Below, piece after piece: positions 27,788-57,990 of a stretch of 64,000 nt of DNA (its first letter is position 1; each line of letters opens with the position of its first letter). A model generated the notes under the pieces. It searched no databases. It saw only the letters and a program-made list of their open reading frames with translations, and was not told where the DNA came from. The DNA is from Cyanophora paradoxa CCMP329 (Eukaryota > Plantae > Glaucophyta). Location of the stretch: assembly GCA_004431415.1 (NCBI GenBank), contig QPMI01000657.1, forward strand, positions 62,001-126,000. Reading direction: 5' to 3'. Position numbers and translations under genes: made by a program.

Positions 27788-29849
27788 TCAGCCGTTATCA
27801 TCCTCCATATCAGCATCAGACTGTGTGACTTGCTCATTTTCTGTCTGAGAAGGACCAGCAACTGGTACAGGTAGAGCTTGACCTGGTCGAGGCTGCGATC
27901 ATATTAAAAAAGAAACGAAAAGTCCTTTCGAATAACATAAAACGCACATAAGAATACATTGTGCTCAAGCGATGAAGAACAAGCTCACGTCCAATTACAT
28001 CGTTCGACGATGTTGGATATGCAGCATGCATGAGCTGAACAGGCAGCTAAAAAGGAAAAATATGTCAATCAATTGCAATGCAGACAAACAACAATGCCTT
28101 ACCGCATGTGATGGCCGACGATCAGCAAAGAACACCTCGTACTTAGGAATTTGGCGAACAGCATTTACAAGTTCGCTGGCCGACAAATTCTGTTCACAAA
28201 TATCAATTTTATTTTCAATGAACAAAAACAATTGCTCGCACCTCGGCCGAGAACCGCCAGTCCTTTGCATCTGTGCAAAATTTGGACTGTCCTCCACAAA
28301 CAGCAACCTGAGCTTCAGATTTAAAGATAGCAGAATCCAAACAAATAAATTTGCTTACCATATCGCCAACTATCATACGAAACAACGTCTTCTTTAAAGC
28401 AGTTTTCTCCAGTGGAAAGCAATCACGAATGAAGAGATAAGATGTGTTCCCAGGAGTTCCACGCATGTCGTGAACGCCTGAAAGAAAAGCATTCACTTGC
28501 TTGAAAGAATCCAGAGAGGTGAGTGCAACTCGGTTGTTCCCCAACGAAAACAGAAGGAACTGTGGAAAATCATTACATAGGATTGCTTTGCCAAGAACAC
28601 AAAAATAAATTGCACCGAGCATTTCCCTTGGTTTGAAGCGAAAAATTGCATTGCTTCGGAGAACCCTCGGATGTCAATCTCCTCCATTGCACCTTGCATT
28701 CCATCATCAAAAATCATCAATCAACCCAAACCGCGTTAAATGAAAAGAAAATGCACTCAGGTTATCCGTCAAAAACGCCGATCTGTTGACCTTTGCCAAA
28801 GCTGCAAGATTTGGCCCCTGAAAAAAAAATTACACATGAAGTCTGACATCATGAATATTTCTTTGCACCTGAAACGAACAAGTTTCTTTTTCGTGCCAAA
28901 GCTGGACGAACTTGGCAATGTCTTCCTTGTTCCCAGCACGCTTTAAAGCGTTCAGTTCCCGAACCTGACATCGTTTATAATGTATGTCAGCGAACAAAAT
29001 TAATTGCTCATGTATTGCGTTTCAAAAAAAAACCAATGACGGGCCTGCTCAAAGAACTCCTTTTCCGCCAGTTTCAGAAGCATGCGTTCGACCACTCCGT
29101 CCGACGAGTAGTCGTCAAGTTTCTCAACTTTGAACTTCGTGTTCTCTTTTGCAGTTCCCATACCTGTCAGAAAGTAGTTTGCTCCTTTATCAAACAACAA
29201 ACACTGCTTTCAAAAGAAACACACCATTTCCGATTGAAAAGAAGCCTTTCGCCACGAAATGTGTATGCTGCTTCTTCTCATATCTTGCATCCACTTCAAG
29301 ATCTGCAACATGTTAATTTGTTTGTCGTCCAATTGCTCTACAAAGAATCCCTCACTGTTTGCAGTTGCTGCAAGCACAGCATCCAAATTCCGACCTCGGA
29401 ACGGATAGTTCTTCAGACGGTAAACAAATCCCTGTTCGCTGTTCAATACCAACAATACACACTCAGCAATCACTTCAATTAGACGCACATCTTTGGCCCT
29501 TTTCCGCATGAACTCTTCCAGAAACGGCTCCAAAATTTCTTGTGGTGGCAAATCCTCGAAGGATACAGGCTTGACACTGTTGACGGAATATGACCCCTGC
29601 ATGATCATCAGTACATGCACACACTCAAAACAAACAAATGTGCACCTTGTCATACCAATTTTTCTCATCGTTCTTCGCAACACCAGAGTTAATGCTACCA
29701 CATACGCGGAACATTACAATCTGCTCTTTAATGAATTTCAAAGCAAACCTCAACTGCCATTACACTTGCTCACCACATTAGACATCCTCAGTGCCGCGTA
29801 TGTGTTCTCAGCAATCAAGAAGCCTGTGCTGTTCGCCATTGTTGTCGAG
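27788..29849 (-). pseudogene. 3' half of an unknown multi-exon gene interrupted by the PLV
   Basis: Spliced coding segments end ...QSDADMEDDNG* (stop 27788-27790). The reading frame runs continuously across the empty insertion site. Confidence 0.6.
29844..29849. repeat. Left 6-bp target-site duplication GTCGAG
   Basis: Identical to 57985-57990 and directly flanks the TIR. Confidence 0.95.
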
Positions 29850-30701
29850 ACACATAGAGAAAGCCCGCGTTTTATCCCTCGGCTAAGTTTAATTATAATT
29901 TGTTTATATTTTACCTATATTTCTTGCATATTTTACGATAATTTATGTGTATTTTATCCTTTATTCTTGTCTTTTATGTGTGTAATTCATATATTTTACT
30001 ATCCAAACCCTTACTGAAATTTAATTTATTCGTAACTCCGATGTATTTTACGTTTATCTCTCGTAATCACTTGTATTTGAGGTTGATTTTAAACTTAGAT
30101 AAATTATATCACGCCTCCTGATAAAACGCGGGCTTTCTCTATGTGTGATATTACGCATTATCGTGTATAATGATATGGAAATAATATGGGTATGCATTAT
30201 ATGAAAAATATGTATTTAATTATACAAGAAATATGTATGAAATTATAATGGAATTCCATCGAAAAATAATAAAATGTACTTTCTCGATTAAATGCGATGA
30301 TGATATGGAGCGCATATGGCGTGTATGGAGCGCGGGACGTGTATTATAAGAAAGATATGTTAGTATTCTTTATGATTCTTATGTTATTATAATGGTATTT
30401 TATGACTGATATTTTGTTGTTTTAATGGGTTCTTACTGATAATGGTATGTGTTACAGGTGTTACAGGTTCATCCCAAACTTTCCCCTAGGAGGAGGTCGG
30501 CGGCTTGGAACTTTGGGATAGACCTGTAACACCTGTAACACTACACTGAATCACAATTAATTAACCTGTTACATCTTCTTTTACCACTTATTACCGTGTC
30601 GGAAATCTCGATACTTTATGTCTCTCCGTATAAGGAGATCCACCAAAGATACCTATTATCCTTTCTTTTATTAACGATGATATATTACATGTCTTTCGCT
30701 C
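29850..30701 (+). repeat. Left terminal inverted repeat (852 bp)
   Basis: Begins ACACATAGAGAAAGCCCGCG and is the reverse complement of 57133-57984. Only one mismatch was seen by eye (30668 vs 57166). Confidence 0.95.
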
Positions 30702-30919
30702 TGAAACAAGAAAAGATCTTTAAATTTAACAGTAAAATCAGTTTATTGTATAATTTACAAACATTGTTTGGTTGTTCATCAATAAACACTTACAGTAAAC
30801 TGTTTTACTGTCTGTTCTATCGTTAACTCTTTCACATTTTGCGAAAACATTGACAATAAAACAGTCAGGTAGCCTGATTTTATTGACAGTAAAATGAAAA
30901 TCTCACTGTATATCGTGCG

Positions 30920-31021
30920 AAAAATGAAAGCCCCGTGAGCTACACAAATTGATTTAAGGAAGTTGCGATATAGAGGTGTAAGAAAGAAAATTATTTTCTG
31001 TGTAAGAGATAAGTAACGATG
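30920..31021 (+). promoter_or_regulatory. About 100-bp upstream cassette, copy 1
   Basis: Near-identical to 31709-31810; both copies end exactly at an ATG. Confidence 0.7.
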
Positions 31022-31705
31022 GAACCCGTAGCTGATATACCTGCTTTGTATGAAAATAATAATAGAATTCGCGCTTACAATATTCCGATAGAAGGAAATC
31101 CTGCTTTTTCAGAAATTCTTAAATTAAGTATGTTTGATAATATGCAAATGCTAACGGTTATACAAGCTATTGAATTTGGACGACATGGATTCGGTGATGA
31201 TCTTAAACTTACTCATATCTCATCTATTGGATATTATCCGTCAAATACCAAAGAAGTATATGTTCATACTTATGATAATCGGTTTTGTCGGTTGTATGAA
31301 GATGAAGTAGATGAGGATGTAAGGGTAAACATTGATAATTATCGAAAAATCTTAGACTTAACGGAGGTTTTCAATGATGAAATTGATCTACAAAATGAAT
31401 TAACATTTCTTTTAATTCGTGTAAGGGATTATATAGGTAAAAATGCTCGTCGGCTCGAAATTGAAAGGTTGCTACGTCGGGTTTATCTCGATGTGCCAAA
31501 ACGTGATCTATCACGTGTTCATGATAAATTCGAAAAATATGGTTTAGTCATCAGAAGCCGTGTAAGTCTCCGTAAGTTGCTATATAAACATGGTGCAATT
31601 TGGACAACACGGACAGGATGGTATATAGCCGAAAAAAATGAAAGTAATGAAATACTTGTGGACATTTTCGGTGCGCGGCATTACCCATATATTGATGAGT
31701 TTTAG
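31019..31705 (+). CDS. PLV hypothetical protein (228 aa)
   Basis: Intact ORF behind the repeated cassette; local similarity to the 31808 ORF. Confidence 0.75.
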   Translation: MEPVADIPALYENNNRIRAYNIPIEGNPAFSEILKLSMFDNMQMLTVIQAIEFGRHGFGDDLKLTHISSIGYYPSNTKEVYVHTYDNRFCRLYEDEVDEDVRVNIDNYRKILDLTEVFNDEIDLQNELTFLLIRVRDYIGKNARRLEIERLLRRVYLDVPKRDLSRVHDKFEKYGLVIRSRVSLRKLLYKHGAIWTTRTGWYIAEKNESNEILVDIFGARHYPYIDEF

Positions 31706-31708
31706 GCA

Positions 31709-31810: not shown

Positions 31811-32086
31811 TCGCGCGCTGAAATGTTTAAGGAGATCTCCGATATCATGGAAGCCGCCGAATACTTCTATAAACAAAATGACACCCTTTACCCTTCTCTG
31901 TCTCATATTGTAGCGATTGGTTTCTTAGCTGATAGACCCGATCGACTGTATGCAAAGAGTGATGAAAACCACTTTTTCCACTATCAAAAGCAAACTTTAA
32001 AAAGAGGAAAGGTGGAATACAACGTTAAAGCACTGTTTAACTTTGGCGGCGAGTTCATCCCTCTTATCGAATTCAAAAACCACTAA
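31808..32086 (+). CDS. PLV hypothetical protein (92 aa), probable paralog of the 31019 ORF
   Basis: LSHIVAIGFLADRPDRLYAKSDENHF resembles LTHISSIGYYPSNTKEVYVHTYDNRF. Confidence 0.65.
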   Translation: MSRAEMFKEISDIMEAAEYFYKQNDTLYPSLSHIVAIGFLADRPDRLYAKSDENHFFHYQKQTLKRGKVEYNVKALFNFGGEFIPLIEFKNH

Positions 32087-32994
32087 TCAATACCTAACGC
32101 TAAAAATTCCAACTGGAACGAATTATCGATACCGTTCATATCAACAACATCACCGTAATAATCACGAAACTCTACCGTTAACTCATTAATCACCAAATTA
32201 CGATCGTTTATTTTTATGTATTCGCCATGCTCTCCGCTATGGTATATATACTTTCCGATGTCCTGACTTAATTGTAAACGCAAAATTGCGCCTTGGTTCT
32301 GTGGTTGCGATCGTGGGACTATATTATGGTTTGCCGCAAATGTGGCAATTTCTTTAATGTGCATATAAATGTATTGTTCAGCGTTCATGTCTGCCATCTT
32401 TGGACTAACCGCTTTAAAAGCCATCGGTGCCGCTACTAACTCCGCTCCCTCGAATGTTATCCCCCACTGTGGGTGATCTGGTGTTATCGGAGTCCCTGCA
32501 TAAAATAAGATATTTTCGGGAGCATATAAAGACCTATTATTATCTATTATCTGTTCTGCGCTACCTAATAACGTTGTTGCACTTAGACCCAATAACTTAG
32601 CTATTCTATTGTTTCCGGCGATGAGTTCAAAAGCGAAATTACTATAAAACTCTAACTTGTATGTCATCGGATTATAATAGATCTTAAATAATATATTCTC
32701 TGTAACCGCAAAGTTCAAACCATAATTATATGGTTGTGTTACTCCGAAATGCCCTTGGTTTATATAACCACTCGGTAATGGGTATACTTGCTGATTAAGA
32801 TAAACACCATCAATATTATAACGTATGTTTATAAAATCGGTTCCTATTGAATTATATATACTGTTCGGAATCTCAGCATACAAAACACGACATTGCCGCG
32901 GTTTGGTTATTGGTCTTGTGAGAGCAACCCTATAAGAGTTTTCTTTTTGTCCTTGTTGTCGATCTCTACTATCGACATTGATAAGACGAATCAT
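32083..32994 (-). CDS. Minor capsid protein (penton) 1
   Basis: N-terminal MIRLINVDSRDR, AEIPNS, and C-terminal LTVEFRDYYGDVVDMNGIDNSFQLEF are typical of single jelly-roll pentons. Confidence 0.8.
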   Translation of the reverse strand: MIRLINVDSRDRQQGQKENSYRVALTRPITKPRQCRVLYAEIPNSIYNSIGTDFINIRYNIDGVYLNQQVYPLPSGYINQGHFGVTQPYNYGLNFAVTENILFKIYYNPMTYKLEFYSNFAFELIAGNNRIAKLLGLSATTLLGSAEQIIDNNRSLYAPENILFYAGTPITPDHPQWGITFEGAELVAAPMAFKAVSPKMADMNAEQYIYMHIKEIATFAANHNIVPRSQPQNQGAILRLQLSQDIGKYIYHSGEHGEYIKINDRNLVINELTVEFRDYYGDVVDMNGIDNSFQLEFLALGID

Positions 32995-33023
32995 TTTATT
33001 ATATGAATATAGATTAAAGAAAC

Positions 33024-34034
33024 ATGCCGGTCGAATATGTCGAAGTTTCATCATTTAGACAGGCTCCTAATCTCGATGCGCCGACGTCTAAGTTTATCGC
33101 TGAATTACCAAAGATGTATGAGAATGTAAGAGCTGTCCGACTTGTTTCGGCGGAATTCTATAACTCCATTCCTCTTATCAGCGGTGAAAGTGTCCCCGGA
33201 GATGTCACAGTTACTGATTCTTTCACTATTAATTTTAGTATCGCTAATTCAGCGATCAACTCTACCAATGCACCCGCTCCCGGTTTTGATGTTTGGCGCT
33301 CGATTCGTCCCGGACAAGGTGGCGGAAGCTTAGTAATTAATACGCATCAGGAATTAGTAAACCGTATTAATACTCGGTTTACTGGTTTAACACCCGATCC
33401 TCAAATTAGGTGTAAATGGGATACCGTAGATAAACGCGTAATATTCTATGCTCCACATGAATTTTACATAGCATTCACAACTGCTAAGGATCCTTCTAGT
33501 TCGATGGCTGAAAAATCAAACCGACACGGTCGTATGCTTGGTCTCGATGCCGGAAGAGCCGGTAACCGATTTATCAAATCTAACATTTACTCAACTGAAT
33601 ATGATCCTATCTTTACAGGTGCTAATGTTCATGGTATCATCTCGACATTCCCTACTGAGAGTTGCAAAGATAATGTATTATTCGTGAGAGTAAAAGAACT
33701 GGGTGACCTCGTTCAATGTGCCGACGGTCTCCTTTCTGGATACTTCCATAAACTCGTGGTGCAAGATAAAGACTTTGCGGAACACGTTGTTTATAACTCA
33801 ACAGAAGCAAACCCATTATATAAGTATTACGGGAAACCATTCGCAATCTCTCAAATGTCCGTAGAAATTGTGAATGCTCAAAACGAATTAATCGATTTTG
33901 AGGGGCAACCTGTGCATTTAACTTTCGAAATCCGATATGGTGAAGAACCCGCCGGTGATCCTATTTATGAGTATTTCAAAATGAGAATGAGAGAAACTCA
34001 CCCAAATTATCCGGTGATTTGCAATTTTGGATAA
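33024..34034 (+). CDS. Minor capsid protein (penton) 2
   Basis: FIAELPKMYENVRAVRLVSAEFYNS and MSVEIVNAQNELIDFEGQPVHLTFEI show the same family signature. Confidence 0.75.
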   Translation: MPVEYVEVSSFRQAPNLDAPTSKFIAELPKMYENVRAVRLVSAEFYNSIPLISGESVPGDVTVTDSFTINFSIANSAINSTNAPAPGFDVWRSIRPGQGGGSLVINTHQELVNRINTRFTGLTPDPQIRCKWDTVDKRVIFYAPHEFYIAFTTAKDPSSSMAEKSNRHGRMLGLDAGRAGNRFIKSNIYSTEYDPIFTGANVHGIISTFPTESCKDNVLFVRVKELGDLVQCADGLLSGYFHKLVVQDKDFAEHVVYNSTEANPLYKYYGKPFAISQMSVEIVNAQNELIDFEGQPVHLTFEIRYGEEPAGDPIYEYFKMRMRETHPNYPVICNFG

Positions 34035-34085: not shown

Positions 34086-35483
34086 ATGGACGTCACAACA
34101 ACCCTCCAACGTCTTTCCCTCAAAGAGGCGCTAACCACCCCCGAAGAGGCAAAGGCGTTCTTCCTCGATAACTCGCTTATGCTTGGTCTGGAATCGAAGA
34201 CGAAACCCGTTCTCGTTACTGTTAGCCCATCGACAACCTTCCCTAACAACGCTGCGCAACGCGTAAGTTTCAAACTTCCACGTTACAACTTTATCGGTAA
34301 GCTGGAACTCGCTTTCGATCTTAGCGAAATTGCTGGTTTCATCGGTGATACCGATTTGGTTCGTAATGGTTATGTCCGCCCCGTCGGCGCTCTCGTAGAG
34401 CGTCTGGAAATCTCGTATGGCTCTTACCTTTTCACTGTGCCTTCTGATTTCCTCGCTCATTTCCCGCTGGTTTACTATTCGGAGGATCAGCTAGCGAAAA
34501 AGAAACGTTCGGCTGGTTTCCTGCACGGCATCCCACAACACGGAACTAACCGACTTGGTGGGTCATTCTTTGTGGAAATCCCCGTGCCATGGTTAAATAG
34601 TTACCTACCGCTTGGCGCGCTCTCAGGCGAAATGGTAGTTACCGCATGGTTCCGTGACCCCGCTAAGGGTGGATTCATTGAGACTTCTTATGGTGGTCGC
34701 GCTCTTCCGGTTGTCGGAGCTGCTGCCGATCAAACCGCTAATGACGGTCTCGGAAGCGCCACCGGTGTAACCCTTGCTAATGTCGGTCAAAACATCACAA
34801 CTGGAACCATTACCGGTCTGTCCATTCCATCATCTGCACCCGTGGATACTATTATGATCACCAACCCACGCCTTTACATGCATGCCGTCAATGTTTCCGA
34901 TGAGCTGTTTGCTACGGTCATTGAAAAGGTTAAGACTACTGGTATTGCGATTCCGGCTATCGACATCGGCTACGTCGATGCTTTCGATGTTGCCGCCAAC
35001 GGCAATAACCAACCTAACCGTATTAACATTAGCCAAATGTCGGGGCTTGCTTTCGCTCTTCTATTCTCGGTTCGTGACTACCTTAAAACCGGTCAGGATA
35101 ACAGCGGCTCCCACAGTGTCCTTAAAACATATGCGGACTCGAAGGATATCACATACACGGTGGAGATTAACGGACAGCGTCTTTATTCCACGGAGCCTAT
35201 CCCACTCCTCAAAGGTGCGGAACTCATCGCCGATGCATTCAAGTGTTCTAACATGGACAAGGAAGCTAACCGCTATGTCCTGTCCGGTCTGCCTTTCTGT
35301 CTGGACGGAGAGAAGGCGATTCGTAACATCGCCCAAAGTGGTTATGTCGATCTAACTAACTCCTCATCAAGTTTCCTAACCCTCTACGTCCCACAAAACA
35401 TGCGCCTTACTGTTAACGTGCGCGCTCTCATGCACACGATGCTCATAGCGGACCGCGACGGTCTGCGGCGAGTCAATCTATAA
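34086..35483 (+). CDS. Major capsid protein (double jelly-roll)
   Basis: 465 aa, beta-rich, with VSFKLPRYNFIGKLELAFDL and YLPLGAL...MVVTAWFRD; lies between the penton and the ATPase. Confidence 0.8.
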   Translation: MDVTTTLQRLSLKEALTTPEEAKAFFLDNSLMLGLESKTKPVLVTVSPSTTFPNNAAQRVSFKLPRYNFIGKLELAFDLSEIAGFIGDTDLVRNGYVRPVGALVERLEISYGSYLFTVPSDFLAHFPLVYYSEDQLAKKKRSAGFLHGIPQHGTNRLGGSFFVEIPVPWLNSYLPLGALSGEMVVTAWFRDPAKGGFIETSYGGRALPVVGAAADQTANDGLGSATGVTLANVGQNITTGTITGLSIPSSAPVDTIMITNPRLYMHAVNVSDELFATVIEKVKTTGIAIPAIDIGYVDAFDVAANGNNQPNRINISQMSGLAFALLFSVRDYLKTGQDNSGSHSVLKTYADSKDITYTVEINGQRLYSTEPIPLLKGAELIADAFKCSNMDKEANRYVLSGLPFCLDGEKAIRNIAQSGYVDLTNSSSSFLTLYVPQNMRLTVNVRALMHTMLIADRDGLRRVNL

Positions 35484-35565
35484 TAAGCACTGTATGTGTT
35501 TGTTACCATTATTTAGTCATATTTCGTTATTTTTATCTGTCTTTATTAAGAAGATCTACAACACC

Positions 35566-36351
35566 ATGGATGATGTCCCCGAATTTAACGCTGGTGAGAT
35601 GATAAAACCACCATTTCGCGTCCTTGCAATCGGAAAATCGGCTACGGGTAAGTCGGAAGCGGTAAAGTATTGGTTAAAACAGTTACATGATGCTAAAAAG
35701 TTAGATGTCGTTTTAGTTGTAAGTGGAACCGCATTTAATCATTTCTGGAATAATGTAGCTACTATACAGCTCGGTAAATGGGATGCGCCTTACATCGCTA
35801 AACTTCTCGATGAAAGACAAGAGAAAATAGAGAAAGGAGAACCTGTTAACCAATTGTGTGTAGTTCTCGATGATCTTATAGATAATGAGTTAGTCGACCT
35901 AACCCGTGACAAAATTATTGGCTCTCTTTACAGTCGGGGGAGACATTCCCAAATTTCTATTATCTGTATCACACAGAAACTGCGTAAGGTTTCTTCCACT
36001 ATTCGCGTTAATTCGGATTATGCGATGTTTCTTAGCGCCGCTAATCGGAAAGAACTCGAAGCGATTGAAGAAGAATACAATATAATAAGAGATAAAGACG
36101 CTTTCTATAAGATGTTTGAGGAATACGTTCATTCATATCAGTTTCTCATTTGGTCATCCGCTGATTATTCGGTAAAGTATTATGTAGATAAAGCGGATCT
36201 CGTTAAAAACTTTGGATTCCCGCGGTTCCATCGCAAACCTAAAAAGAAAGAAGACGAATTACCACAACCACAGAAAGAAGAAGAAGCGCCAAAAGAGATT
36301 AAAAGCGCTATTCATACAAATAAATTGATGCGATATAAGAGAGGACTTTAA
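35566..36351 (+). CDS. A32/FtsK-like genome packaging ATPase
   Basis: Walker A GKSATGKS, Walker B VVLDD, RGRHSQISIICITQ and IRVNSDY. Confidence 0.93.
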   Translation: MDDVPEFNAGEMIKPPFRVLAIGKSATGKSEAVKYWLKQLHDAKKLDVVLVVSGTAFNHFWNNVATIQLGKWDAPYIAKLLDERQEKIEKGEPVNQLCVVLDDLIDNELVDLTRDKIIGSLYSRGRHSQISIICITQKLRKVSSTIRVNSDYAMFLSAANRKELEAIEEEYNIIRDKDAFYKMFEEYVHSYQFLIWSSADYSVKYYVDKADLVKNFGFPRFHRKPKKKEDELPQPQKEEEAPKEIKSAIHTNKLMRYKRGL

Positions 36352-37111: not shown

Positions 37112-37138
37112 ATATATCTGATTAATAAAGGATTCTCG

Positions 37139-37387
37139 ATGGACTTTCTCCAAAAGATCATAGAGATGTTTAACCTGCACATTGTAAGCAATTGTCACAG
37201 CGGATGCTGTGATACAACCGTAGAACTTGGTTTTTCAGATACCGAAGATAATGTAACGGAAGGTAGAGAGTCCCGGAGACATTCGGTAGATTCCACACAT
37301 TCAGAACCCGCTACAAATGGTCGCCGTTTTTCGGTAGATCAAAGCGATAATTTACGAAGGCAAGCGTTTGATCATCGAGGTAATTAA
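37139..37387 (+). CDS. Small protein with CxSxCC motif
   Basis: LHIVSNCHSGCC followed by an acidic/Ser-rich tail. Confidence 0.55.
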   Translation: MDFLQKIIEMFNLHIVSNCHSGCCDTTVELGFSDTEDNVTEGRESRRHSVDSTHSEPATNGRRFSVDQSDNLRRQAFDHRGN

Positions 37388-37589
37388 AATATTTGTAATA
37401 AGTATCGGAAAATGCTCGAAGAAGTCTATAATATTATTTTAGCGAAACATCAGATTTACGCCGTTGCATCTGCGATAGAAAAACGTAGACATGAGCTTGT
37501 CCGGTCGCCAAAAAATGACAACCCTAAAAGTATTTAAAGAAACAGCGATATTACAAACTGATAAAATATTTTCTGTGCTGAAAGTAAGA

Positions 37590-40395: not shown

Positions 40396-40497
40396 ATATA
40401 AATGAATTGAATGATTACTTTCTTACTATTTTTTATAACCTTACTGTGTATGGTAAGATAAAACAATGTTACAGGTAAATTTCCGGTTTTCAGTAAG

Positions 40498-46812: not shown

Positions 46813-46831
46813 TTAATATATTAAAACATAA

Positions 46832-48022: not shown

Positions 48023-51000
48023 TTATACTGTGACATTTTTAATTTGATCTATTTGACTTTGGAGATTTTCACATGTTTGTGTTAAATCTTTGCATTTCTT
48101 AGATAACTCTTTAACGGCTTCTATGAGAACTGGAATTAAACCCGTGTATTCGAGAGAAAGGTAACCATCTTCTTTTGTGACACTTACAATTTCTGGTATT
48201 ACCTTTTCTACATCTTGCGCAATTAAACCTAATTTTGTTCCGTCTTTTTCACTCCCAATTCGTTTAAAACTCACTCCTTCTAATTTTTCGATTGCTGAAA
48301 GAGCGCCGGTTATCTTTTTAATATCTGTTTTGTATCTTCTGTCACTTCCTTGTGTTAAATAATTGTTTATCCACATCCGCCCGTTATGATCGATCCAACA
48401 AATATCAGAATCTAATTCATTTCGAAATACAATTGGATAATCTCCCCTTCCTTTCAAATATGTAGAAGTATTATTACCGAAATGGATACGATTGTATCCA
48501 TCACTGGAATTAAACCAAGTCCCCACAGCTCCTGTTAAGATATTTGGTTTACTATAAACATTATTCCAATGAATATAACCGGTGTGACCTCCATAACTAT
48601 GTCCAACCCAAATTTTCATGTAACTTATACCCATAATATGAACTCTTCCAATCTTTGGTCTAATCCGAATAGTCAAAAATCGATTACCGAGATGTATAGG
48701 AACATTATTTAAACCGCTGTGGTTACTGTCAGGAGATGTGGCGTATGGTTGATAACTATTCACTGATGTAATAAAAACTTCATTTCCTTGTCGATTTACT
48801 CCCCAAATTTCAAAAATTCGTGAGTTAGTCCAAGGTAGATAAGTTAAAAACGCTGTTCCTTTGAGATATCCTTCTGGAATATCGAAGTCTATCCAAGCGG
48901 TTGAAGTTTGATCATCCGTTTGATTATTATAAACATATGAACCATAATTATAATATGGATCCCATGCTGCACTCCACGCCCATGTCCAATCGTTATAAGA
49001 ACATCTATTAAATTCAATTCCTCCTTTTGTTGAATCCGCTGTGTGAAACTTTGGGACATCATTACCATTTATTTGGAGTTTGGTAGTAGCATTAATAGTG
49101 GGTGCTGTAATAGTGTTTTTCACCCAAAAGTTACCATTGTTATAAGACTTTAATATTGCTCCATCTGCTGAGTCTCTGAATTCAATTGAAACACCATCAC
49201 CATTTCCATAACCTCGAATATATGTGCAATCACCATTTCCAAACAAAATTCGCGGAACAGTGTCGGTTGATTTTAACCATGTATTTGTTGCCCATGTCGC
49301 TGTTTGTGGAAGGTCTGCGGCTGTAATTAATGCGGGGCGACTGTAAATATTATCCCAAGAGATCATACCAACATCATTATCTGTTGCCCTCTGCCTACTC
49401 CAACCAAAAACTCCTGTGAGATGAATGCGACCTTTTCGACCTTGAACATAAATATACTTGTAAAACTCGCAATTAATTGATACAAACAAGATAGTATTAT
49501 TTGTCCCATCATGATTTACTGACTGTATTCCTTGATAATCGTTTACACGTTTTAAGAAATGCTGATTGTTATTGAGAGTCTGACCATAGATATCAAAATA
49601 TCTGCCATTATACCAAGGCATATGCTGAATATAAAATGATTTCATACCTGTGGGGACAGTCCACCTCATAAAACAACCGCTACAATCTTCATCATTTTGT
49701 GGTGTTGTATAACATCCTGTTTGTCCTGTTCTTGGTGACCAATTCAAATTCCAATTATTTGCGCTTCTATCTGTTGATACTACATCTAATTGATCGAAAT
49801 CATATCCTTTTGGAATTGTGTTTCCACCAATTTGTAGACTAGTAGCGTTTACAGTTCCATTAACTGTCCCACCTGTAAGAGGTAAATAATTTCCTAGAGC
49901 TGCTGTTAACTCTGCATCTGTTGTATAATTATTTAGAGTCGTTCCCAATTCACTTTCTGTTACATAGCTGCTTAAATCTGCTGTTGTAAGATACCCTTTA
50001 TTGGTTAGGTAATCATCTGTAACAACACCTGAAAGGGTTGTATTGTGTAAGTTTTTCGCCGCCATTCTCTGATTGACTTCTAAGGCGCCACCTGATGTTG
50101 TTTTTATCCACGCCATCTCACATTTACCGTGATCATCTGTGGGTTGTCCCGCAACGGGAAGATAGTTTACAACTTTCTCCCTTGTGAATACTATTTTAGG
50201 TCTTGCTCCATCATATGCGCTTTGATCTGTTACGTTAATTTGAATAGCTGCTGAAAAATCCGCTACTTGTCCTATTTCTCCTGGGTGATAATTCGTAACA
50301 TAGATACTGGGGAAAGTATCGTTTACTCCTACATTGAAATCGCCACTATACACTCCATTTACGATTGGATCCCTGGGTAATCTTACTGCAAGAGTTCCCA
50401 CCATCGGTGTGCCTGTTTCACCTGTAAATGAACCATTGAGACTAACATAATGATCATTCAAAAATAGCCTTTCAGGTGTATTAATTGATTGGTAAAGTGT
50501 GACTCCATTAAAAACGTTTCCGATTGCATTCAATTGGGCAAAAACTGGCTGTTCGTCTATTTCGCTCCATGGGTGCCTGTGGTTGCTATTTGTAATCTCT
50601 GAATAATCATGAGTGTGTGAATCAGGTGGGAAGGTTAACGGAGGATTTGTGATATGCTCCCATAAATGAGTATGGGCGAAATCTGTTATTTGATCTTTTG
50701 TGTGAGTATGTGCGAAATCTGTTATTTGATCTTTTGTGTGAGTGTGTGCGAAATCTGTTATTTGATCTTTGGTGTGTGTATGGGCGAAATCTGTGATTTG
50801 ATCTTTTGTGTGAGTATGGGCGAAATCCGTAATATCTGCTTTTGTGTGTTTTTGTTTTGCTAACCAATCTAAAACAACATTCGATGTTGGATGATGTGGT
50901 AGAGTTGCATTTTTGGTAACTGTGAGATTTTCAATAAATATATTGCTCGAATTAATTTTAAGATCTTCATTATTCAATATGGGCTGCGTATTTGGAAATC

Positions 51001-53914
51001 CATACAATAATTGTATATAATATCTAACCGCGTTCTTTTCTTCAATAGATAACGCACGATTGAAAACGATAATTTCGGCAAGATCTCCATTAGCAACAGA
51101 AGAACCAAATGATGCAAAATTAGAAGGTGGAAGAAAATCACCCGATGATGTTCCAATATCAATACCACCCATTCCTACGACAATTTGCTCTGAGGAAACA
51201 GTGAAATCCCAATAATTCCACGAATTATAAATATATGATGCATCGAATAATGGAGGAGTTGCATTTTCTATATCGTTTTGAATTTGTAGTGAAACACCAA
51301 ACTTTTGATTTTTACAACCATATCCAATCCAATTTTGATAAGAACTATCCCTTATACTCAACATATAAGAAGGATTTGTAGTATTGATCCTACCTATAAA
51401 GAATAATGTAAGACCTAATGACCAATCTATTGAAACACTATTCCTATAAGCCATGTTTAATTCTTTCCCAATCGAAATTTGATTGTTTAGGGTTGCATTC
51501 AAATAATAATAAACAGTTTCCCAATTCGAATAATTTGTTAGATATGGTATCTGTGTAGTAACTCTGTTATATATCTGACCTTGATAATATATCAACTGAC
51601 CATGTTGACCTGATGCTTTCCATGCAAATATACAATTTGGAATAATTGGGGCTGGATCAATGACAGTAGTAACAGCATAGTAAGGTCTATAAAGTATTTG
51701 TATAGTATTTTGTGTTCCAATTGTTATATTTCGATACACTGTAAGATTACTTGTGTAAATATCATCTGCCCATAGGTTACTTGCCCATATGTTACTTGCC
51801 CATATGTTACTTGCCCATATGTTACTTGCCCATATGTTACTTGTATAAATGTTACTTGTGACTGTAAGGTTTGTATCATTTTTTATCACGAATAATGAAA
51901 GAATATTAGTAAGTTCTCCTTCATCGATGTATCCCTGTTCTTCTAAATAATCTTCTGTTACCACTCTCGAAATATCTTCATTGTGTATATTTTTGGCGCT
52001 TGCTCTTTGATTGATTTCTAATAAACCTTCACCAACTCCGCCATTATAATTTGTTTTTATCCATGCTACCTCACATCTTCTATAATCATCTCGATTTCCT
52101 ATAAAAGTATTTGGTAAAAGACGCTGCCGACTAAATACTAATTTCGGTCTCGATTGGTCAAAATCGCTTACATCTGTTACATTAATTTGGATTGCGGCAT
52201 CTTTGTTATCATAACTATTTGGATCTAATGGAAGTGACGGTATCGGAGGTAATACATCTGTCATCGGGATATCCTCAGGGTAGAAGCTTGTTAAATAAAT
52301 TCCGGGTTTCGTCTCATATAAACCAAAATTACCATTGATTGGTAAAATCCCCTCTCTTCTGGGTGGTCTAATGTATAATTCGGCTTCCATTCCTGTGCCT
52401 GCTTCTATTCCCATGCGATTAAGGTAGTGGTCATTTAATTGTAATCTTTCTTCTATGTTAATATTTCTATAAAGACTTACACCATGTTGAAAATCTGTTA
52501 ATACATTTCCTGCTGATGCAAAAGTAGGCTGTTCGTCGATTTCGTCCCAATTATGCCTATGGTCTTCTGGCGGAAACTCAGTAGGTATGTTATCCAAATC
52601 TTCCCAATCATGGCGATGCTCTGTGGGTGGAAATCTTTCCGGTTTGTTTAGAATGTCATCCCATTCGTGTTCGTGGGGATCTGGTGGGAATGTGTCGGGT
52701 TTGTTAATAATATCCCTCCAATCTACGGTAAAATCGAAAAATCCCGGCTGTAATCCGTCTGGTAATAGCTCTTCATCTGGTATATGTGGTTGTTCGTAAT
52801 CTATGTTAGGTGGATCTAATCCATGTGGTAAAAGTTGTTCGTCGTAAGGTTGAAAACGATCATATAACATATGGTTAGGATCAAATCCATCGGGTAATTC
52901 TTCCACGTCTTCACATTCTTTATGTTCGAGAGGTATAACATTAATATCTGGTGCTAAAAGTTCCTCAGCGGGCGGTTTGTAATCTTTAAAAACTGGTTTA
53001 TTATGGACTTTTTCCCAACTAACAAAATGTTGCCCAAACGCTACCGTCTCATCTGCTGTGTATTCTCTTCCGGGTTGTTTCTTTGGTGTAAGATCTGGTG
53101 GATCCCATGGTAGCGGAAAGGGAACCGGAGTAGGTCCGTAATGCTCTATGATCTCTCTTATCGTTTTCTCACTAACAAGCCGTTCCCCATTTGCATAAAC
53201 ATTACTACCATGAATATTTCGCCATTGTCGGGTTCTAATACCAAGGTCTTTGGTGTTTGTGACCAAAGGTAGTAAATGCCGATCCATTTCGACAAGATCG
53301 GGATGTAAATGTATAGCTACTGGTTGAGTGGGGCTACTGTTGACAGTGACAGACGCCTTAGCTTGCGATGTATCATCAGGTAATCTAAAACCGAATTCTT
53401 CATTAGAAGCCGCATTTCGCACAATATCCTGCGGGTAAATGTTATTAGTATACGTGAAATTGTTCGTGTCACCATGTGGTGCAATTTGCAATATTTCAGG
53501 GATTTGTGTAATCGCATTTGATCCTTCATTATAGATTCTCAAACCGCTACGATGAACTCCCTTCTCATCCTGGACATTAAAAACCAAACGTCCGCTATCA
53601 TAACGTGTGGGAATATCGGGATGCGTTCCACTTGCTTTAAGTTTCCGTGGTCTCCTTCTGGTTGCCTTGATCTCCGCAACCGCGTTTTTTTTTACATTCC
53701 CCAAACTGAAAGCTATACTTACATCTTCTTTCTCTGGGTCTGTTTGATTCAGCGATAAAGCATGAATTCTGGGATGCGTCTTACTGGGTTTATCGGCGCT
53801 CTGATCAATTGACGCCGACCCTTTAATGGTGATATTATCAAAGTTTACATGTTTAGTGTTTCCTTTACCACTACCTGTTATGGTTTGTAAATTTGCTGGA
53901 TAATTGAAACTCAT
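48023..53914 (-). CDS. 1963-aa fibre protein with C-terminal peptidase S74 intramolecular chaperone
   Basis: SDRRYKTDI...GLIAQDVEKVIPE...LEYTGLIPVLIEAVKEL; HTHTKDQITDFA repeats; LamG-like GDLAEIIVFNRALS. Confidence 0.88.
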   Translation of the reverse strand: MSFNYPANLQTITGSGKGNTKHVNFDNITIKGSASIDQSADKPSKTHPRIHALSLNQTDPEKEDVSIAFSLGNVKKNAVAEIKATRRRPRKLKASGTHPDIPTRYDSGRLVFNVQDEKGVHRSGLRIYNEGSNAITQIPEILQIAPHGDTNNFTYTNNIYPQDIVRNAASNEEFGFRLPDDTSQAKASVTVNSSPTQPVAIHLHPDLVEMDRHLLPLVTNTKDLGIRTRQWRNIHGSNVYANGERLVSEKTIREIIEHYGPTPVPFPLPWDPPDLTPKKQPGREYTADETVAFGQHFVSWEKVHNKPVFKDYKPPAEELLAPDINVIPLEHKECEDVEELPDGFDPNHMLYDRFQPYDEQLLPHGLDPPNIDYEQPHIPDEELLPDGLQPGFFDFTVDWRDIINKPDTFPPDPHEHEWDDILNKPERFPPTEHRHDWEDLDNIPTEFPPEDHRHNWDEIDEQPTFASAGNVLTDFQHGVSLYRNINIEERLQLNDHYLNRMGIEAGTGMEAELYIRPPRREGILPINGNFGLYETKPGIYLTSFYPEDIPMTDVLPPIPSLPLDPNSYDNKDAAIQINVTDVSDFDQSRPKLVFSRQRLLPNTFIGNRDDYRRCEVAWIKTNYNGGVGEGLLEINQRASAKNIHNEDISRVVTEDYLEEQGYIDEGELTNILSLFVIKNDTNLTVTSNIYTSNIWASNIWASNIWASNIWASNLWADDIYTSNLTVYRNITIGTQNTIQILYRPYYAVTTVIDPAPIIPNCIFAWKASGQHGQLIYYQGQIYNRVTTQIPYLTNYSNWETVYYYLNATLNNQISIGKELNMAYRNSVSIDWSLGLTLFFIGRINTTNPSYMLSIRDSSYQNWIGYGCKNQKFGVSLQIQNDIENATPPLFDASYIYNSWNYWDFTVSSEQIVVGMGGIDIGTSSGDFLPPSNFASFGSSVANGDLAEIIVFNRALSIEEKNAVRYYIQLLYGFPNTQPILNNEDLKINSSNIFIENLTVTKNATLPHHPTSNVVLDWLAKQKHTKADITDFAHTHTKDQITDFAHTHTKDQITDFAHTHTKDQITDFAHTHTKDQITDFAHTHLWEHITNPPLTFPPDSHTHDYSEITNSNHRHPWSEIDEQPVFAQLNAIGNVFNGVTLYQSINTPERLFLNDHYVSLNGSFTGETGTPMVGTLAVRLPRDPIVNGVYSGDFNVGVNDTFPSIYVTNYHPGEIGQVADFSAAIQINVTDQSAYDGARPKIVFTREKVVNYLPVAGQPTDDHGKCEMAWIKTTSGGALEVNQRMAAKNLHNTTLSGVVTDDYLTNKGYLTTADLSSYVTESELGTTLNNYTTDAELTAALGNYLPLTGGTVNGTVNATSLQIGGNTIPKGYDFDQLDVVSTDRSANNWNLNWSPRTGQTGCYTTPQNDEDCSGCFMRWTVPTGMKSFYIQHMPWYNGRYFDIYGQTLNNNQHFLKRVNDYQGIQSVNHDGTNNTILFVSINCEFYKYIYVQGRKGRIHLTGVFGWSRQRATDNDVGMISWDNIYSRPALITAADLPQTATWATNTWLKSTDTVPRILFGNGDCTYIRGYGNGDGVSIEFRDSADGAILKSYNNGNFWVKNTITAPTINATTKLQINGNDVPKFHTADSTKGGIEFNRCSYNDWTWAWSAAWDPYYNYGSYVYNNQTDDQTSTAWIDFDIPEGYLKGTAFLTYLPWTNSRIFEIWGVNRQGNEVFITSVNSYQPYATSPDSNHSGLNNVPIHLGNRFLTIRIRPKIGRVHIMGISYMKIWVGHSYGGHTGYIHWNNVYSKPNILTGAVGTWFNSSDGYNRIHFGNNTSTYLKGRGDYPIVFRNELDSDICWIDHNGRMWINNYLTQGSDRRYKTDIKKITGALSAIEKLEGVSFKRIGSEKDGTKLGLIAQDVEKVIPEIVSVTKEDGYLSLEYTGLIPVLIEAVKELSKKCKDLTQTCENLQSQIDQIKNVTV
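50666..50848 (-). repeat. 5 x 36-bp coding tandem repeat (HTHTKDQITDFA)
   Basis: Read directly from the sequence. Confidence 0.9.
51767..51858 (-). repeat. 15-bp coding tandem repeat (SNIWA)
   Basis: GTTACTTGCCCATAT units. Confidence 0.9.
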
Positions 53915-53963: not shown

Positions 53964-55502
53964 ATGCCCTTACGCGTAGTTTTAGCATTGTCCGGCGGCG
54001 GCGCACGTGGTATTATCATAACAAGGTTGTTAAAAGAAATAGAAACAAGAACGGGTAAACGCGTTATTGATTTGGTCGATCTTGTAAGTGGAACATCCAC
54101 AGGCGGTATTATCGCTATCGGTCTCAATGTGAAAAATCCCGAATTTCCCGATGAACCTAAATTAACAGCTACCGACCTTCACAATACTTACCTATATCAT
54201 CTTCCTCTCATCTTTGCGAATCCGCGGAATATTATAGAGAATGCACTTTTCAATACTAAATATGATGTATCACCATTAGAAACCGCTATTTTCTCTGTGA
54301 CTGGGGAAGCTCTCATAAAAGATTCACTAAAAGATGTGGTTATTACGACGTTCGACACTGTAAGCATGAAACCAATTTTTATAGCAAATGATAACGATTA
54401 CAAGACTATACCAAGTAAAATAGCGGCACGTTCTACTTCCGCCGCTCCTACATATTTTGCTCCTGTCGATTACGAGGGGATGTGTTTAATAGATGGTGCG
54501 ATATCAGGTAACAATAACCCAAGTGTTTGTGGTTATAGTCACGCAAAAAAGATTTATGATAACGATGACGATATTATAGTTATTAGCATATCATGTGGTG
54601 AGGTTAACGAAACGGACGCACCTAATGTGGGTTACTCTTAGGAAAGTGTGAATACCTGGGGAATTCTATCATGGATTGCTTCCACCTCAGGGAGTCCATT
54701 AATCAATATGCTAATGGCTGCAAGTGAATTATCGGCTCTTGAAAAGATGCAAGAGTTTTTACCATATAATGATGACCAAGGATATGCGCGATACTACCGT
54801 ATCTCCGTGCCGCTTCCGAAAGATATCTTAAACTCCCTCGATGATACTTCTAAGATTCCGGACATGATCACGGCGACTGAAACGTATATACAAGCAAACA
54901 ACGCCATGATAAATCGACTCTGTGAGTTACTTGTAACAAACTACGAAATTAAGAACCCTGTAAGATCCTATGTATCATCCACTCTTAATAACATACCTCC
55001 TATTGACGCTAACTGGTATCTTCTATCGGATAATGCGTTTACCGCTTCTTCTGCAAAATTCGGAAAAGAGGCATTTAAAGCCCGCCCATCATTAACAGGA
55101 TGGGAAGCGAACGCATCCGCCATAAACGGAGTATGGGAAACGCCAACTGAATATTTGCAAATTGCTTTTCCATATACATATGAAATCGCTTCTATAATTG
55201 CGTATGGTTCAGGTATAACAACTGCATTTATTAAAACTTTCAATGTTGCGACGTCGCAAGATGGTATAACATGGTCATTTATCAAATATGAGGGTGTAAA
55301 TCGAATGTTTGTATGTGAGAATATAAATAATGCTAATAACTCTGGGGATGTATCATATGCTCTGGGGTTCCCGCTTTCGATTAACGATGTATTTTATATA
55401 GGTTATCCATTAAGAACACGATATATACGTATTTATCCTTTGGTATATATAAATGCCCCGACTATGAGAGTCGATGTAACGGGCGCATTTATTAGAAATT
55501 AA
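53964..55502 (+). pseudogene. Patatin-like phospholipase + F5/8 type C (discoidin) domain, split by one in-frame TAG at 54639-54641
   Basis: GGGARG, GTSTG, SAAPTYF, DGA. The same frame continues GYS*ESVNTWGILSW into discoidin motifs EYLQIAF, SQDGITW, RYIRIYP...MRVDVTG. Confidence 0.8.
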
Positions 55503-56797
55503 AGTTTTTCAGTTCCATTTATTGTAAGTTTCTTTAATTCTCTTGTAATTTTACTTTTTTTCTTTAATCTGGCTTGTAAAAGCGGTTCTTCTGGGACATC
55601 ATCCGCTTTTTCGATGCCTTCCTTTCGTATCGCCGAATCTATCCGCGCTTCTTCTTTGGCTTGTTCTAATGCATCACCTGTGGGCGCCTCATGATACTCT
55701 ACACCTTTGATAGGTAACAGTTCGTGGAAAGCAAACCTCCCATCGACCATTTCACCATTAGGATTTCTTAACCGAAACTTAAAACCCTCTCTACCCTCGA
55801 CAGTATAAACGATCCGCGACCAATTGACACCCTGTTTAGCGAATGGGTTCTTTTCTATTCTCACCCGCACAAACATACCCTTTTGAATACCGTCTAAGTA
55901 AGCCATCGACTTCTTAAACTTCTCGTCTTCTAAACCTATGATTTCTCTATAATGCTCATCTGTGGTTTCTGCGGGTTTTCTCTTAGTCGCTGAATGAACA
56001 GTATGATTATAATTATACTCAATGTCACCCAATACATCGAAAAATCGCGCTGTGTTGTTTGCTATGCAATAGTTCGTAATAAGCCGCTTGATCTGCTTGT
56101 TAAACGCTTCTATTCTACCCTGACTACGATGATCTGCGACATCGCTAATCTGATGATCGATGAACTTCTTAGCAAGGTAGTTAGTGAACACTGTATTAGT
56201 AAATTCGCTCCCGCTATCACTTTGGACGCGTGCAATAGGTCGTGGCACTCTCTTTTGTAGCTGTTCGAAAGCGGCAAGAGTCGTAATAGCGCTCTTATCT
56301 CTCATCGGAATTATATAACCTGTTCTAAGCGTTGATTCCATAGCCGACATAAACGTATCGTATCCGTCATTTTGCTTCTTGTAAGCCGGGAAAAACAGAA
56401 GATCTATAACATAGGTATCGAGAGGTTGCCTAATTGGTATCATCGGGTCTCTCTTTCTTGAAAGGGTTGGCGCGTTAATCTGAACGACTTCCTGTTTATC
56501 ATACCATTCTTTCATCTTCTTATAGTCCTCATCCGGTAGTTCTTTTCTCATCGCTCCGAAACCCTTGTATCCGGTGCGCGGATCATAAAACTTCTTAGCA
56601 ATCTTAGACTCTTTCGTTACAGTCTCAGTAGGCAATGCCTCCGGGATCAGTTCTTTAACTATCTCAGACTTCTTTAAAATTCGTGTGTTTTTCTGTTCTA
56701 TCGGAATGGTTATAGGTAGCATATTACCTTGATCTTCTTTCATGCTCTTCTTTACGATCTTAGGAATGGGTCTTAATCCTATCTGTGCTGACGGCAT
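55499..56797 (-). CDS. Retroviral-type (RVE) DDE integrase
   Basis: YVIDLL, VQSDSGSEF, GRIEAFNKQIK and YNHTVHSATKRKP; the DDE triad is intact. Confidence 0.93.
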   Translation of the reverse strand: MPSAQIGLRPIPKIVKKSMKEDQGNMLPITIPIEQKNTRILKKSEIVKELIPEALPTETVTKESKIAKKFYDPRTGYKGFGAMRKELPDEDYKKMKEWYDKQEVVQINAPTLSRKRDPMIPIRQPLDTYVIDLLFFPAYKKQNDGYDTFMSAMESTLRTGYIIPMRDKSAITTLAAFEQLQKRVPRPIARVQSDSGSEFTNTVFTNYLAKKFIDHQISDVADHRSQGRIEAFNKQIKRLITNYCIANNTARFFDVLGDIEYNYNHTVHSATKRKPAETTDEHYREIIGLEDEKFKKSMAYLDGIQKGMFVRVRIEKNPFAKQGVNWSRIVYTVEGREGFKFRLRNPNGEMVDGRFAFHELLPIKGVEYHEAPTGDALEQAKEEARIDSAIRKEGIEKADDVPEEPLLQARLKKKSKITRELKKLTINGTEKL

Positions 56798-56841
56798 CTT
56801 TACCTTATTTCCGTAATTTAATTTTTCTATATAATTCATAA

Positions 56842-57243
56842 ATGAACCATCGGGGCTTCCATGTGATGTTAGATTACAAGTTTTCGAGTCCGCTAATTAC
56901 GGGAGTGGACAACTTAGAGACCACAACGAAATGGTTAATGCACTTTTTACAAGATATTATACAAGAACAAGGTATACGAGTAGTTCACAAGCATTACGAG
57001 ATTTTCGATGGTGGTCTTTCACCTCCTGGTTTTACATTAGTTCTCCTATTAGATGAGAGTCATTGCACCGCTCATTGTTACTCAGACGAGGGCATGTTAG
57101 CAATCGATATATTCAGTTGCGGAAGGGAAGCGGAGCGAAAGACATGTAATATATCATCGTTAATAGAAGAAAGGATAATAGGTATCTTTGGTGGATCTCC
57201 TTATACGGAGAGACATAAAGTATCGAGATTTCCGACACGGTAA
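56842..57243 (+). CDS. speD: Prokaryotic-type (class 1B) S-adenosylmethionine decarboxylase proenzyme
   Basis: GFHVMLD, PPGFTLVLLLDESHCTAHCYSDEG and AIDIFSCG, including the ESH self-cleavage motif. Confidence 0.85.
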   Translation: MNHRGFHVMLDYKFSSPLITGVDNLETTTKWLMHFLQDIIQEQGIRVVHKHYEIFDGGLSPPGFTLVLLLDESHCTAHCYSDEGMLAIDIFSCGREAERKTCNISSLIEERIIGIFGGSPYTERHKVSRFPTR

Positions 57244-57984
57244 TAAGTGGTAAAAGAAGATGTAACAGGTTAATTAATTGTGATTCAGTGTAGTGTTACA
57301 GGTGTTACAGGTCTATCCCAAAGTTCCAAGCCGCCGACCTCCTCCTAGGGGAAAGTTTGGGATGAACCTGTAACACCTGTAACACATACCATTATCAGTA
57401 AGAACCCATTAAAACAACAAAATATCAGTCATAAAATACCATTATAATAACATAAGAATCATAAAGAATACTAACATATCTTTCTTATAATACACGTCCC
57501 GCGCTCCATACACGCCATATGCGCTCCATATCATCATCGCATTTAATCGAGAAAGTACATTTTATTATTTTTCGATGGAATTCCATTATAATTTCATACA
57601 TATTTCTTGTATAATTAAATACATATTTTTCATATAATGCATACCCATATTATTTCCATATCATTATACACGATAATGCGTAATATCACACATAGAGAAA
57701 GCCCGCGTTTTATCAGGAGGCGTGATATAATTTATCTAAGTTTAAAATCAACCTCAAATACAAGTGATTACGAGAGATAAACGTAAAATACATCGGAGTT
57801 ACGAATAAATTAAATTTCAGTAAGGGTTTGGATAGTAAAATATATGAATTACACACATAAAAGACAAGAATAAAGGATAAAATACACATAAATTATCGTA
57901 AAATATGCAAGAAATATAGGTAAAATATAAACAAATTATAATTAAACTTAGCCGAGGGATAAAACGCGGGCTTTCTCTATGTGT
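57133..57984 (-). repeat. Right terminal inverted repeat (852 bp)
   Basis: Ends ...GGGCTTTCTCTATGTGT; reverse complement of 29850-30701. Confidence 0.95.
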
Positions 57985-57990
57985 GTCGAG
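57985..57990. repeat. Right 6-bp target-site duplication GTCGAG
   Basis: Identical to 29844-29849. Confidence 0.95.

Follow-up and report, generated by a model that had tools for sequence, protein, structure and literature searches.

A Polinton-like provirus of Cyanophora paradoxa with an exonuclease-deficient protein-primed polymerase and a separate primase-helicase

The window analysed here is a stretch of 64,000 nucleotides from the glaucophyte Cyanophora paradoxa CCMP329 (contig QPMI01000657.1, positions 62,001 to 126,000), and all coordinates below are positions within it. It carries an element of 28,135 bp (29850-57984, 38.8% GC) which is a complete, young, rve-integrated provirus from a multi-copy family of Polinton-like viruses (PLVs). 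The element encodes a protein-primed DNA polymerase of family B (pPolB), of the polinton type, that has lost its proofreading residues and, in a separate gene, a fusion of a Prim-Pol primase with a superfamily 3 (SF3) helicase. With a probability of roughly 0.55, the exonuclease-dead pPolB and the primase-helicase would constitute one replisome and replicate the genome together. Publications are cited for those parts that were accessible, and the searched literature, from which subscription papers were largely excluded, holds no description of exonuclease loss in this polinton-type pPolB or of the triplicated palindrome described below. The combination of exonuclease-dead polinton-type polymerase, separate primase-helicase and triplicated palindrome is in this sense the new part. 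Searches for S-adenosylmethionine decarboxylase (AdoMetDC) in Polintons, for a palindromic origin with a primase in PLVs, for endogenous Preplasmiviricota in glaucophytes and for proofreading in Polisuviricotina likewise gave no literature match.

The loss of the proofreading residues is evident from a comparison of pPolB with the best 120 of 242 homologs, which comprise P0004, 46-47% identical over its full length, and 119 others that align across only 53-61%. The ExoI pattern DxE is present in 116 and the ExoII pattern N-x-YD in 117 of the 119 other homologs, ExoIII is found in 76 of them with a narrower pattern, and all three are absent from both pPolB and P0004. The two proteins share a deletion of approximately 93 residues that includes ExoIII, with 34 residues between the FxD and LDP anchors in each, where 117 homologs have a median spacing of 127. 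The pair retains Pol motifs A, B and C as well as the Cys and His of the vOTU domain and is 51% identical in the palm and 54% in the vOTU block compared to 20% in the ExoI strand block. An EndoVII-like zinc-binding insert in pPolB (residues 498-540, window 43550-43680) is 59% identical to that of P0004, above the level of the flanking exonuclease strands, and could serve a separate function. Residues 411-1073 of the pPolB model (pLDDT 85.8, built on a 42-row alignment) can be superimposed onto phi29 polymerase (Z 20.5, root-mean-square deviation (rmsd) 3.2, 486 residues aligned). Because this alignment begins at phi29 residue 3, a folded exonuclease remnant is predicted, a fold that may be biased by the mostly exonuclease-intact homologs in the model alignment. 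Further upstream, residues 77-207 match the little finger of Pol eta (Z about 9), a fold reported for PRD1-like terminal proteins (PMC11161782).

In a tree of the palm alone, made from 34 rows (pPolB, P0004, 31 of the 119 other homologs and the locus L001), pPolB and P0004 form a single branch (100/100) with a long stem and an uncertain position. No relatives of the exonuclease-less pair were found in viral or prokaryote genome contigs. L001, which had been retrieved alongside P0004, was rejected as a relative, being an unrelated PLV in which the exonuclease motifs occur; this IMG/VR contig (L001:33-11639) carries, by eye, an exonuclease-intact pPolB and MCP-, penton-, ATPase- and GIY-YIG/HNH-like ORFs. 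Exonuclease loss accompanies helicase gain in the polymerases of mavirus and of the Tlr1 type (Krupovic 2024, PMC11161782), and only these two cases are restated in the accessible parts of PMC12721341 and PMC13215967. The retained remnant and the polinton-type nearest relatives, in a tree that holds no mavirus or Tlr1 sequence, would imply that the loss in pPolB and P0004 is likely independent of both.

The second component of the proposed replisome is associated with a palindrome of 93 bp which has two TGTTACAGG units per arm and occurs in three copies, one in each terminal inverted repeat (TIR) and one about 100 bp past the stop codon of the Prim-Pol/SF3 gene. The internal copy is part of a 170-bp block that is 84% identical to the TIR, and a 17-mer of the palindrome was observed 6 times against an expectation of 0.01. 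Primase-helicases use origins beside their own gene, as in phage satellites, and the palindrome is a candidate replication origin. A search for primase-helicase loci found none.

The coupling of the two proteins is suggested by the exchange of exonuclease for helicase reported in mavirus and in enzymes of the Tlr1 type (PMC11161782), and the 'two replication modules' of a preliminary description of this DNA are better read as one exonuclease-dead pPolB with a helicase-bearing partner. It is proposed that the integrase inserted the linear genome, which would have generated the 6-bp duplication. On activation the vOTU protease would free the terminal protein (TP) domain, which would prime synthesis at the ends, while the SF3 helicase, likely loaded at the 93-bp palindromes, would open the duplex in front of the exonuclease-dead polymerase. 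The major capsid protein (MCP), two pentons, the ATPase and the fibre would then assemble into a particle with no maturation protease involved, and lipase from intact copies would aid entry. Host CpG methylation likely silences the provirus copy, and a giant-virus helper is perhaps needed. Several points weigh against the replisome: the co-occurrence of exonuclease loss and helicase rests on one element, P0004 being known without its gene context; a Prim-Pol/SF3 protein is by itself a complete replicase type in other PLVs (PMC12220804; Barth 2026); and among 156 glaucophyte elements PF03175 is listed in 49, D5_N in 40 and PIF1 in 34, as single counts only (Bulzu 2025 Table S6, PMC12220804). 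In addition, the palindrome patterns have 0 matches in viral contigs and 0 in metagenomes, which gives the origin role no comparative support, and the lipase gene is broken in the provirus copy.

A possible but clearly less probable explanation is that the element is a chimera undergoing replicase turnover, in which a capsid and Prim-Pol/SF3 module was joined to a transpoviron-like pPolB and integrase; the primase-helicase would then be the real replicase, acting at palindromic origins, and pPolB would serve only in end processing before integration. The internal repeat does lie directly after the primase-helicase gene and, together with the inverted copy in the left TIR, brackets a 10-kb block (30405-40634). 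However, any such join must be old because the two repeat copies are only 84% identical, and a second target site duplication (TSD) or full second TIR was looked for inside the element and none was seen. The dual-replicase genomes of Barth 2026, where internal repeats surround one replication set, include one Cyanophora contig, and pPolB is tied to DDE integrases in the same work. The 51% palm identity to P0004 and the retention of all Pol motifs speak against a chimera.

The element is delimited by TIRs of 852 bp that differ only at TIR position 819 (99.9% identical) and by perfect copies of the TSD GTCGAG at 29844-29849 and 57985-57990, which is why the span of 29844..57990 given earlier corresponds to the element plus both TSDs. 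Its termini read 5'-AC...GT-3', and its size and ends are those of the Polisuviricotina (14-40 kb with TIRs, an integrase and a TSD). The 22 main open reading frames (ORFs; ATG start, largely non-overlapping, 82-1963 amino acids) cover 87.7% of the element and none needs an intron to be read, close to the count of about 24 intronless ORFs made earlier, whilst scans for tRNAs and against Rfam gave no match. The sole visible break is an in-frame stop (54639-54641) that separates patatin from discoidin; all core genes are open, and the many TIR mismatches and broken core genes that would contradict a young insertion did not appear. The preliminary description of a complete, young, rve-integrated PLV with a very divergent MCP, near-identical TIRs, a perfect 6-bp TSD and a single broken ORF is in agreement with these observations and with the two true relatives of the MCP; the exonuclease loss in pPolB and the triplicated palindrome do not figure in it. 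The terminal 27 bp (29850-29876) reappear in inverted orientation at 30120-30146, 270 bp inward, and the same arrangement is mirrored in the right TIR, so that each element end forms a panhandle of approximately 300 bp; the inverted repeat could be a second integrase site or a terminal-protein site. The right TIR starts within the AdoMetDC gene, the last 37 codons of which are therefore also present in the left TIR, and the sole TIR mismatch falls in this segment (57133-57243).

Reads from three runs (X1, X3 and X13), which may derive from one strain, were compared with positions 24000-43900; the 20 listed DNA runs, all of one organism, contain 0.69-0.73 of the sampled words. No RNA run was among those listed, and one possible RNA run yielded no contig, which carries no information on expression. 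The flank is a single contig of even depth (75, 24 and 40 in the three runs) which enters the left TIR unchanged for 29-30 nucleotides in X1 and X3 and stops short in the uninformative X13. The left junction fits an occupied site without an empty allele, and the empty site that the preliminary description proposed to look for was not seen at this junction, where X1 and X3 are unbranched. Within the element each run yields 701-1005 contigs of 90-100% identity, which also answers the earlier call for other copies by revealing a multi-copy family. Single near-identical contigs reach approximately 5-12 times the flank depth, a variant without the first ORF (228 amino acids) approximately 18-21 times and a variant without the 294-amino-acid ORF approximately 3 times. 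These values would point to a copy number of some tens and to gene content that varies between copies, an approximate figure because the short sides of the variant junctions are below 30 letters and depth serves as a coarse measure. Among the 40 of 539 copy differences that were examined, 21 lie in ORFs, where synonymous changes make up 12 of 13 in core genes and, in the first ORF, 3 of 8. Upstream of each of the first two ORFs lies a common 105-bp leader (30917-31021 and 31706-31810, 90% identical), likely a promoter cassette through which genes are gained and lost.

That the provirus is real but inert, a silenced and decaying copy of a family which spread formerly or whose present movement is purely that of a transposon, with no particles formed, is unlikely. 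The nonsense break, the deletion variants among the copies and the unbranched entry of the flank into the TIR in two runs, with no empty site seen, are all compatible with decay, as is the finding of methylation and predominant silence in viral-origin genes and repeats of C. paradoxa (PMC12344493), but they have to be set against TIRs that are 99.9% identical, core genes that are all open and core-gene differences of which 12 of the 13 listed are synonymous. An assembly artefact from collapsed repeats, as the source of the locus or of the polymerase deletion, is very improbable even though the family is multi-copy with variants of 90-99%, no contig spans the element and the read comparison (24000-43900) reaches the left junction only, given the perfect TSD, the unique flank contig that proceeds 30 nucleotides into the left TIR unchanged in two runs and the presence of the same deletion in an unrelated record with 46% identity (P0004).

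The MCP of 465 amino acids has no Pfam or PHROGs match, and a phmmer search of 1.84 billion proteins returned three matches, one of low complexity and two true relatives, P0001 from C. paradoxa (58-61% identical) and P0002 (37-38%), with no match to MCPs of the TsV, PgVV or Dino groups. No relatives were found in viral contigs or in the metagenome contigs scanned. The structure prediction suggested at the outset gives a double jelly roll, as in Polisuviricotina, from a low-confidence model (pLDDT only 48.9) that matches the capsids of Singapore grouper iridovirus (SGIV), Paramecium bursaria chlorella virus 1 (PBCV-1), Emiliania huxleyi virus (EhV) and faustovirus better than it does virophage MCPs. 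It aligns to the SGIV capsid with a Foldseek E value of 6e-11 (Z 12.7, rmsd 3.8, 150 residues aligned), and the same model scores Z 10.2-12.7 with MCPs of nucleocytoplasmic large DNA viruses (NCLDVs) compared to Z 6.2-6.6 with those of mavirus and Sputnik. The packaging ATPase is of the A32/FtsK kind found in Polisuviricotina (Pox_A32 1.1e-10). Two divergently arranged ORFs of 323 and 336 amino acids are likely pentons. The preliminary description had called both pentons outright, and what supports it is a weak mutual similarity (z 3.8, 0/200 shuffles; z < 1 in all 6 control comparisons of a penton with other ORFs) and, for penton B, an Atlas score of 0.97 to viral clusters, one of them with DUF5901 on 13% of its members, at a recognition below the 2300 mark; BLASTP between the two ORFs is not significant (E 0.093). 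In keeping with that description no vUlp1/adenain maturation protease was detected at the profile level by Pfam (22 ORFs), PHROGs (18) or NCBIfam (15), or by a motif check. The missing protease was rejected as an unusual trait, since the Aquintoviricetes, or PLVs in the strict sense, are known to have a reduced morphogenetic module without it (Bulzu 2025, PMC12220804).

Pfam supports the A32 ATPase, Prim-Pol with D5_N and DUF5906, S74, patatin, F5/8C and AdoMet_dc, with weak support for rve, and the S74 fibre, patatin-discoidin lipase and AdoMetDC were thus correctly named before. Viral relatives of SpeD-like proteins have undergone a change of substrate (PMC9992855). The fibre gene contains in-frame tandem arrays of 36 bp (50667-50848) and 15 bp (51767-51858). 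The Atlas leads for the 281-amino-acid ORF are all below 0.9, and this ORF and its 280-amino-acid paralogue are perhaps virion- or fibre-associated. In Bellas 2023 (PMC10120064) 366 C. paradoxa MCP matches fall into two 'new' clusters (counted by eye as 21 and 29), and a 465-amino-acid C. paradoxa MCP in Table S2 matches that of the element by eye over the approximately 400 residues shown. For the 156 glaucophyte elements, Table S6 of Bulzu 2025 (PMC12220804) lists rve in 85, lipases in 89, AdoMet_dc in 66, S74 in 37, D5_N in 40, PF03175 in 49 and a protease in 0 of 156 in all nine columns. The 'undescribed lineage' and 'unusual gene set' of the preliminary description are not supported in that form, in view of these two tables. 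The S74 fibre and patatin-discoidin protein were rejected as unusual because S74 fibres are described as ubiquitous and a discoidin-patatin fusion is noted beside glaucophyte and rhizarian PLVs in Bulzu 2025, and AdoMetDC was rejected as a lineage mark since it is also present in PLVs of Cryptomonas (10, 17) and Rhodomonas (45) (PMC12220804). Starrett 2021 noted Alpha-like PolB and integrase relatives among contigs of C. paradoxa, and giant-virus insertions are present in the host genome alongside the methylated viral-origin genes (PMC12344493). The family is therefore catalogued, yet unnamed and uncharacterised in the literature covered.

Protists harbour endogenous PLVs in abundance and the present family has been tabulated, so the provirus as such would not surprise a specialist. 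The compensatory link between exonuclease and helicase was drawn by Krupovic 2024 from two groups, and the present element adds a case in which the polymerase is of different stock and the dead domain persists, which makes the link directly testable with two purified proteins. An intact copy provides a reference genome for an unnamed glaucophyte capsid lineage whose host is available in axenic culture and has a published methylome (PMC12344493). A more far-reaching and doubtful proposal is that the family represents an unnamed class-level capsid lineage and the third independent trade of proofreading for a helicase in the phylum, caught midway with the exonuclease fold present and emptied. A palindromic origin derived from the primase-helicase would have been copied into both TIRs, replication would combine ends primed by protein with origins loaded by helicase, and an intact provirus could still be woken in a culturable model alga.

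Table 1. Features of the provirus, in window positions (aa, amino acids; AEP, archaeo-eukaryotic primase)
Feature	Position	Strand	Evidence or remark
Left TSD GTCGAG	29844..29849	.	sequence
Left TIR, 852 bp; first 27 bp inverted again at 30120-30146	29850..30701	+	
93-bp palindrome in left TIR, 33-bp arms, two TGTTACAGG units per arm; candidate origin	30449..30541	.	z -9.1
ORF 228 aa	31019..31705	+	between 105-bp direct repeats 30917-31021 and 31706-31810; absent from high-depth family variant
ORF 92 aa	31808..32086	+	
Likely penton-like minor capsid protein A (323 or 336 aa pair)	32083..33054	-	weakly similar to penton B (z 3.8, 0/200 shuffles)
Likely penton-like minor capsid protein B	33024..34034	+	Atlas 0.97 to viral clusters; recognition < 2300 mark
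MCP, 465 aa, double jelly roll	34086..35483	+	Foldseek E 6e-11 to SGIV capsid; Z 12.7; model pLDDT 48.9
A32-type packaging ATPase, Walker A/B present	35494..36351	+	Pox_A32 1.1e-10
Three ORFs (243, 82, 124 aa)	36380..37865	+	
Prim-Pol (AEP) + D5_N + SF3 helicase fusion, 779 aa	38056..40395	+	Pfam; motifs seen by eye
170-bp internal repeat of the TIR (84% identity) with perfect 34-bp-arm palindrome 40498-40590	40466..40634	.	z -13.3
ORF 84 aa (+) and Cys/His-rich 294-aa ORF (-) with charged coil	40739..41939	+, -	294-aa ORF missing in some copies
pPolB, 1093 aa; domains in order TP, vOTU, exonuclease remnant (containing the EndoVII-like insert), palm	42062..45343	+	
90-aa zinc-finger ORF resembling parts of phage HNH endonucleases	45674..45946	-	
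Paralogous ORF pair, 281/280 aa, 35% identical	45967..47674	-	
ORF 102 aa	47711..48019	-	
Fibre, 1963 aa, internal repeats, C-terminal S74 chaperone	48023..53914	-	
Patatin-discoidin (F5/8C) fusion, in-frame stop 54639-54641	53964..55502	+	Pfam
rve-type DDE integrase, 446 aa, D-D-E seen by eye	55499..56839	-	weak Pfam rve; PHROGs/NCBIfam transposase matches
AdoMetDC/SpeD-like proenzyme with ESH motif; final 111 bp within right TIR	56842..57243	+	Pfam
Right TIR including third palindrome copy 57293-57385	57133..57984	-	
Right TSD GTCGAG	57985..57990	.	sequence

The provirus sits in an AT-rich stretch between GC-rich host regions, downstream of a fragmented Helitron Rep/PIF1 gene (20749-27286, +) whose ORFs match Helitron_like_N (1.5e-18) and PIF1 helicase (1.8e-26), and its insertion was likely into a large, AT-rich element of the Helitron type at roughly 15500-60800. 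A 31-bp GC-rich direct repeat which is able to form a hairpin lies close to both edges of the AT-rich stretch (15473-15503 and 60790-60820) and may mark the ends of this Helitron-type element. The AT-rich stretch also contains an ORF for an ERCC4-domain nuclease beside the Helitron Rep (19396-20106, +; 3.2e-12), and a GC-rich host gene region with a match to a MUS81-like winged helix is present as an inverted partial duplication (5629-6133 and 12287-12811).

The provirus would work like a mavirus-style integrating DNA virus and is an unclassified PLV, its MCP not matching the polinton type and no test favouring a virophage. A pPolB with TP and vOTU domains together with an rve integrase, a combination expected of Polintoviricetes, is present, and so is the exonuclease-deficient pPolB with a separate SF3 helicase and an rve integrase that is expected of Virophaviricetes; the Mavpol-clade MCP of Polintoviricetes is not found, judging from the phmmer matches and from the lack of a Mavpol label, by eye, in the accessible part of Bellas Table S4. 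The closest known systems are the endogenous elements of C. paradoxa itself, which have the same MCP family and the same group-level repertoire (Bellas 2023; Bulzu 2025), and the accessible parts of both papers describe no single element of the family, no exonuclease loss and no palindromes, the word 'exonuclease' being absent from the main text of Bulzu 2025. The dual-replicase polisuviruses (Barth et al. 2026, bioRxiv 10.64898/2026.10.13.758929) likewise have two replicase classes per genome and internal repeats beside a replicase; 'exonuclease' is absent from the main text, to which the comparison extends, and the figures and supplements may show this Cyanophora family. Tlr1-type PLVs and transpovirons (pPolB-S1H) similarly pair exonuclease loss with a helicase (PMC11161782), but their superfamily 1 (SF1) helicase is part of a fusion and they have no exonuclease domain left, whereas the element keeps a remnant and has its SF3 helicase in a separate gene. 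With Maverick/Polintons and Alpha adintoviruses the element shares a pPolB of TP-vOTU-exonuclease-palm organisation, 28-33% identical to animal-type homologs, as well as an rve integrase, an ATPase, a double jelly-roll MCP and a 6-bp TSD. Unlike Maverick/Polintons, its MCP has no sequence match to polinton MCPs, no protease was found, the proofreading motifs are lost, a primase-helicase is added and the ends read 5'-AC...GT-3', where polinton ends read AG...CT. Mavirus differs in that the MCP fold of the element is nearer to NCLDV capsids, no vUlp1 was found in the element, the helicase of the element is fused to Prim-Pol, and its polymerase has exonuclease-intact polinton-type enzymes as nearest relatives and keeps a folded remnant. 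Like mavirus, which generates a TSD of 5-6 bp, the element nevertheless combines a pPolB without a working exonuclease, an SF3 helicase in a gene of its own, an rve integrase and TIRs.

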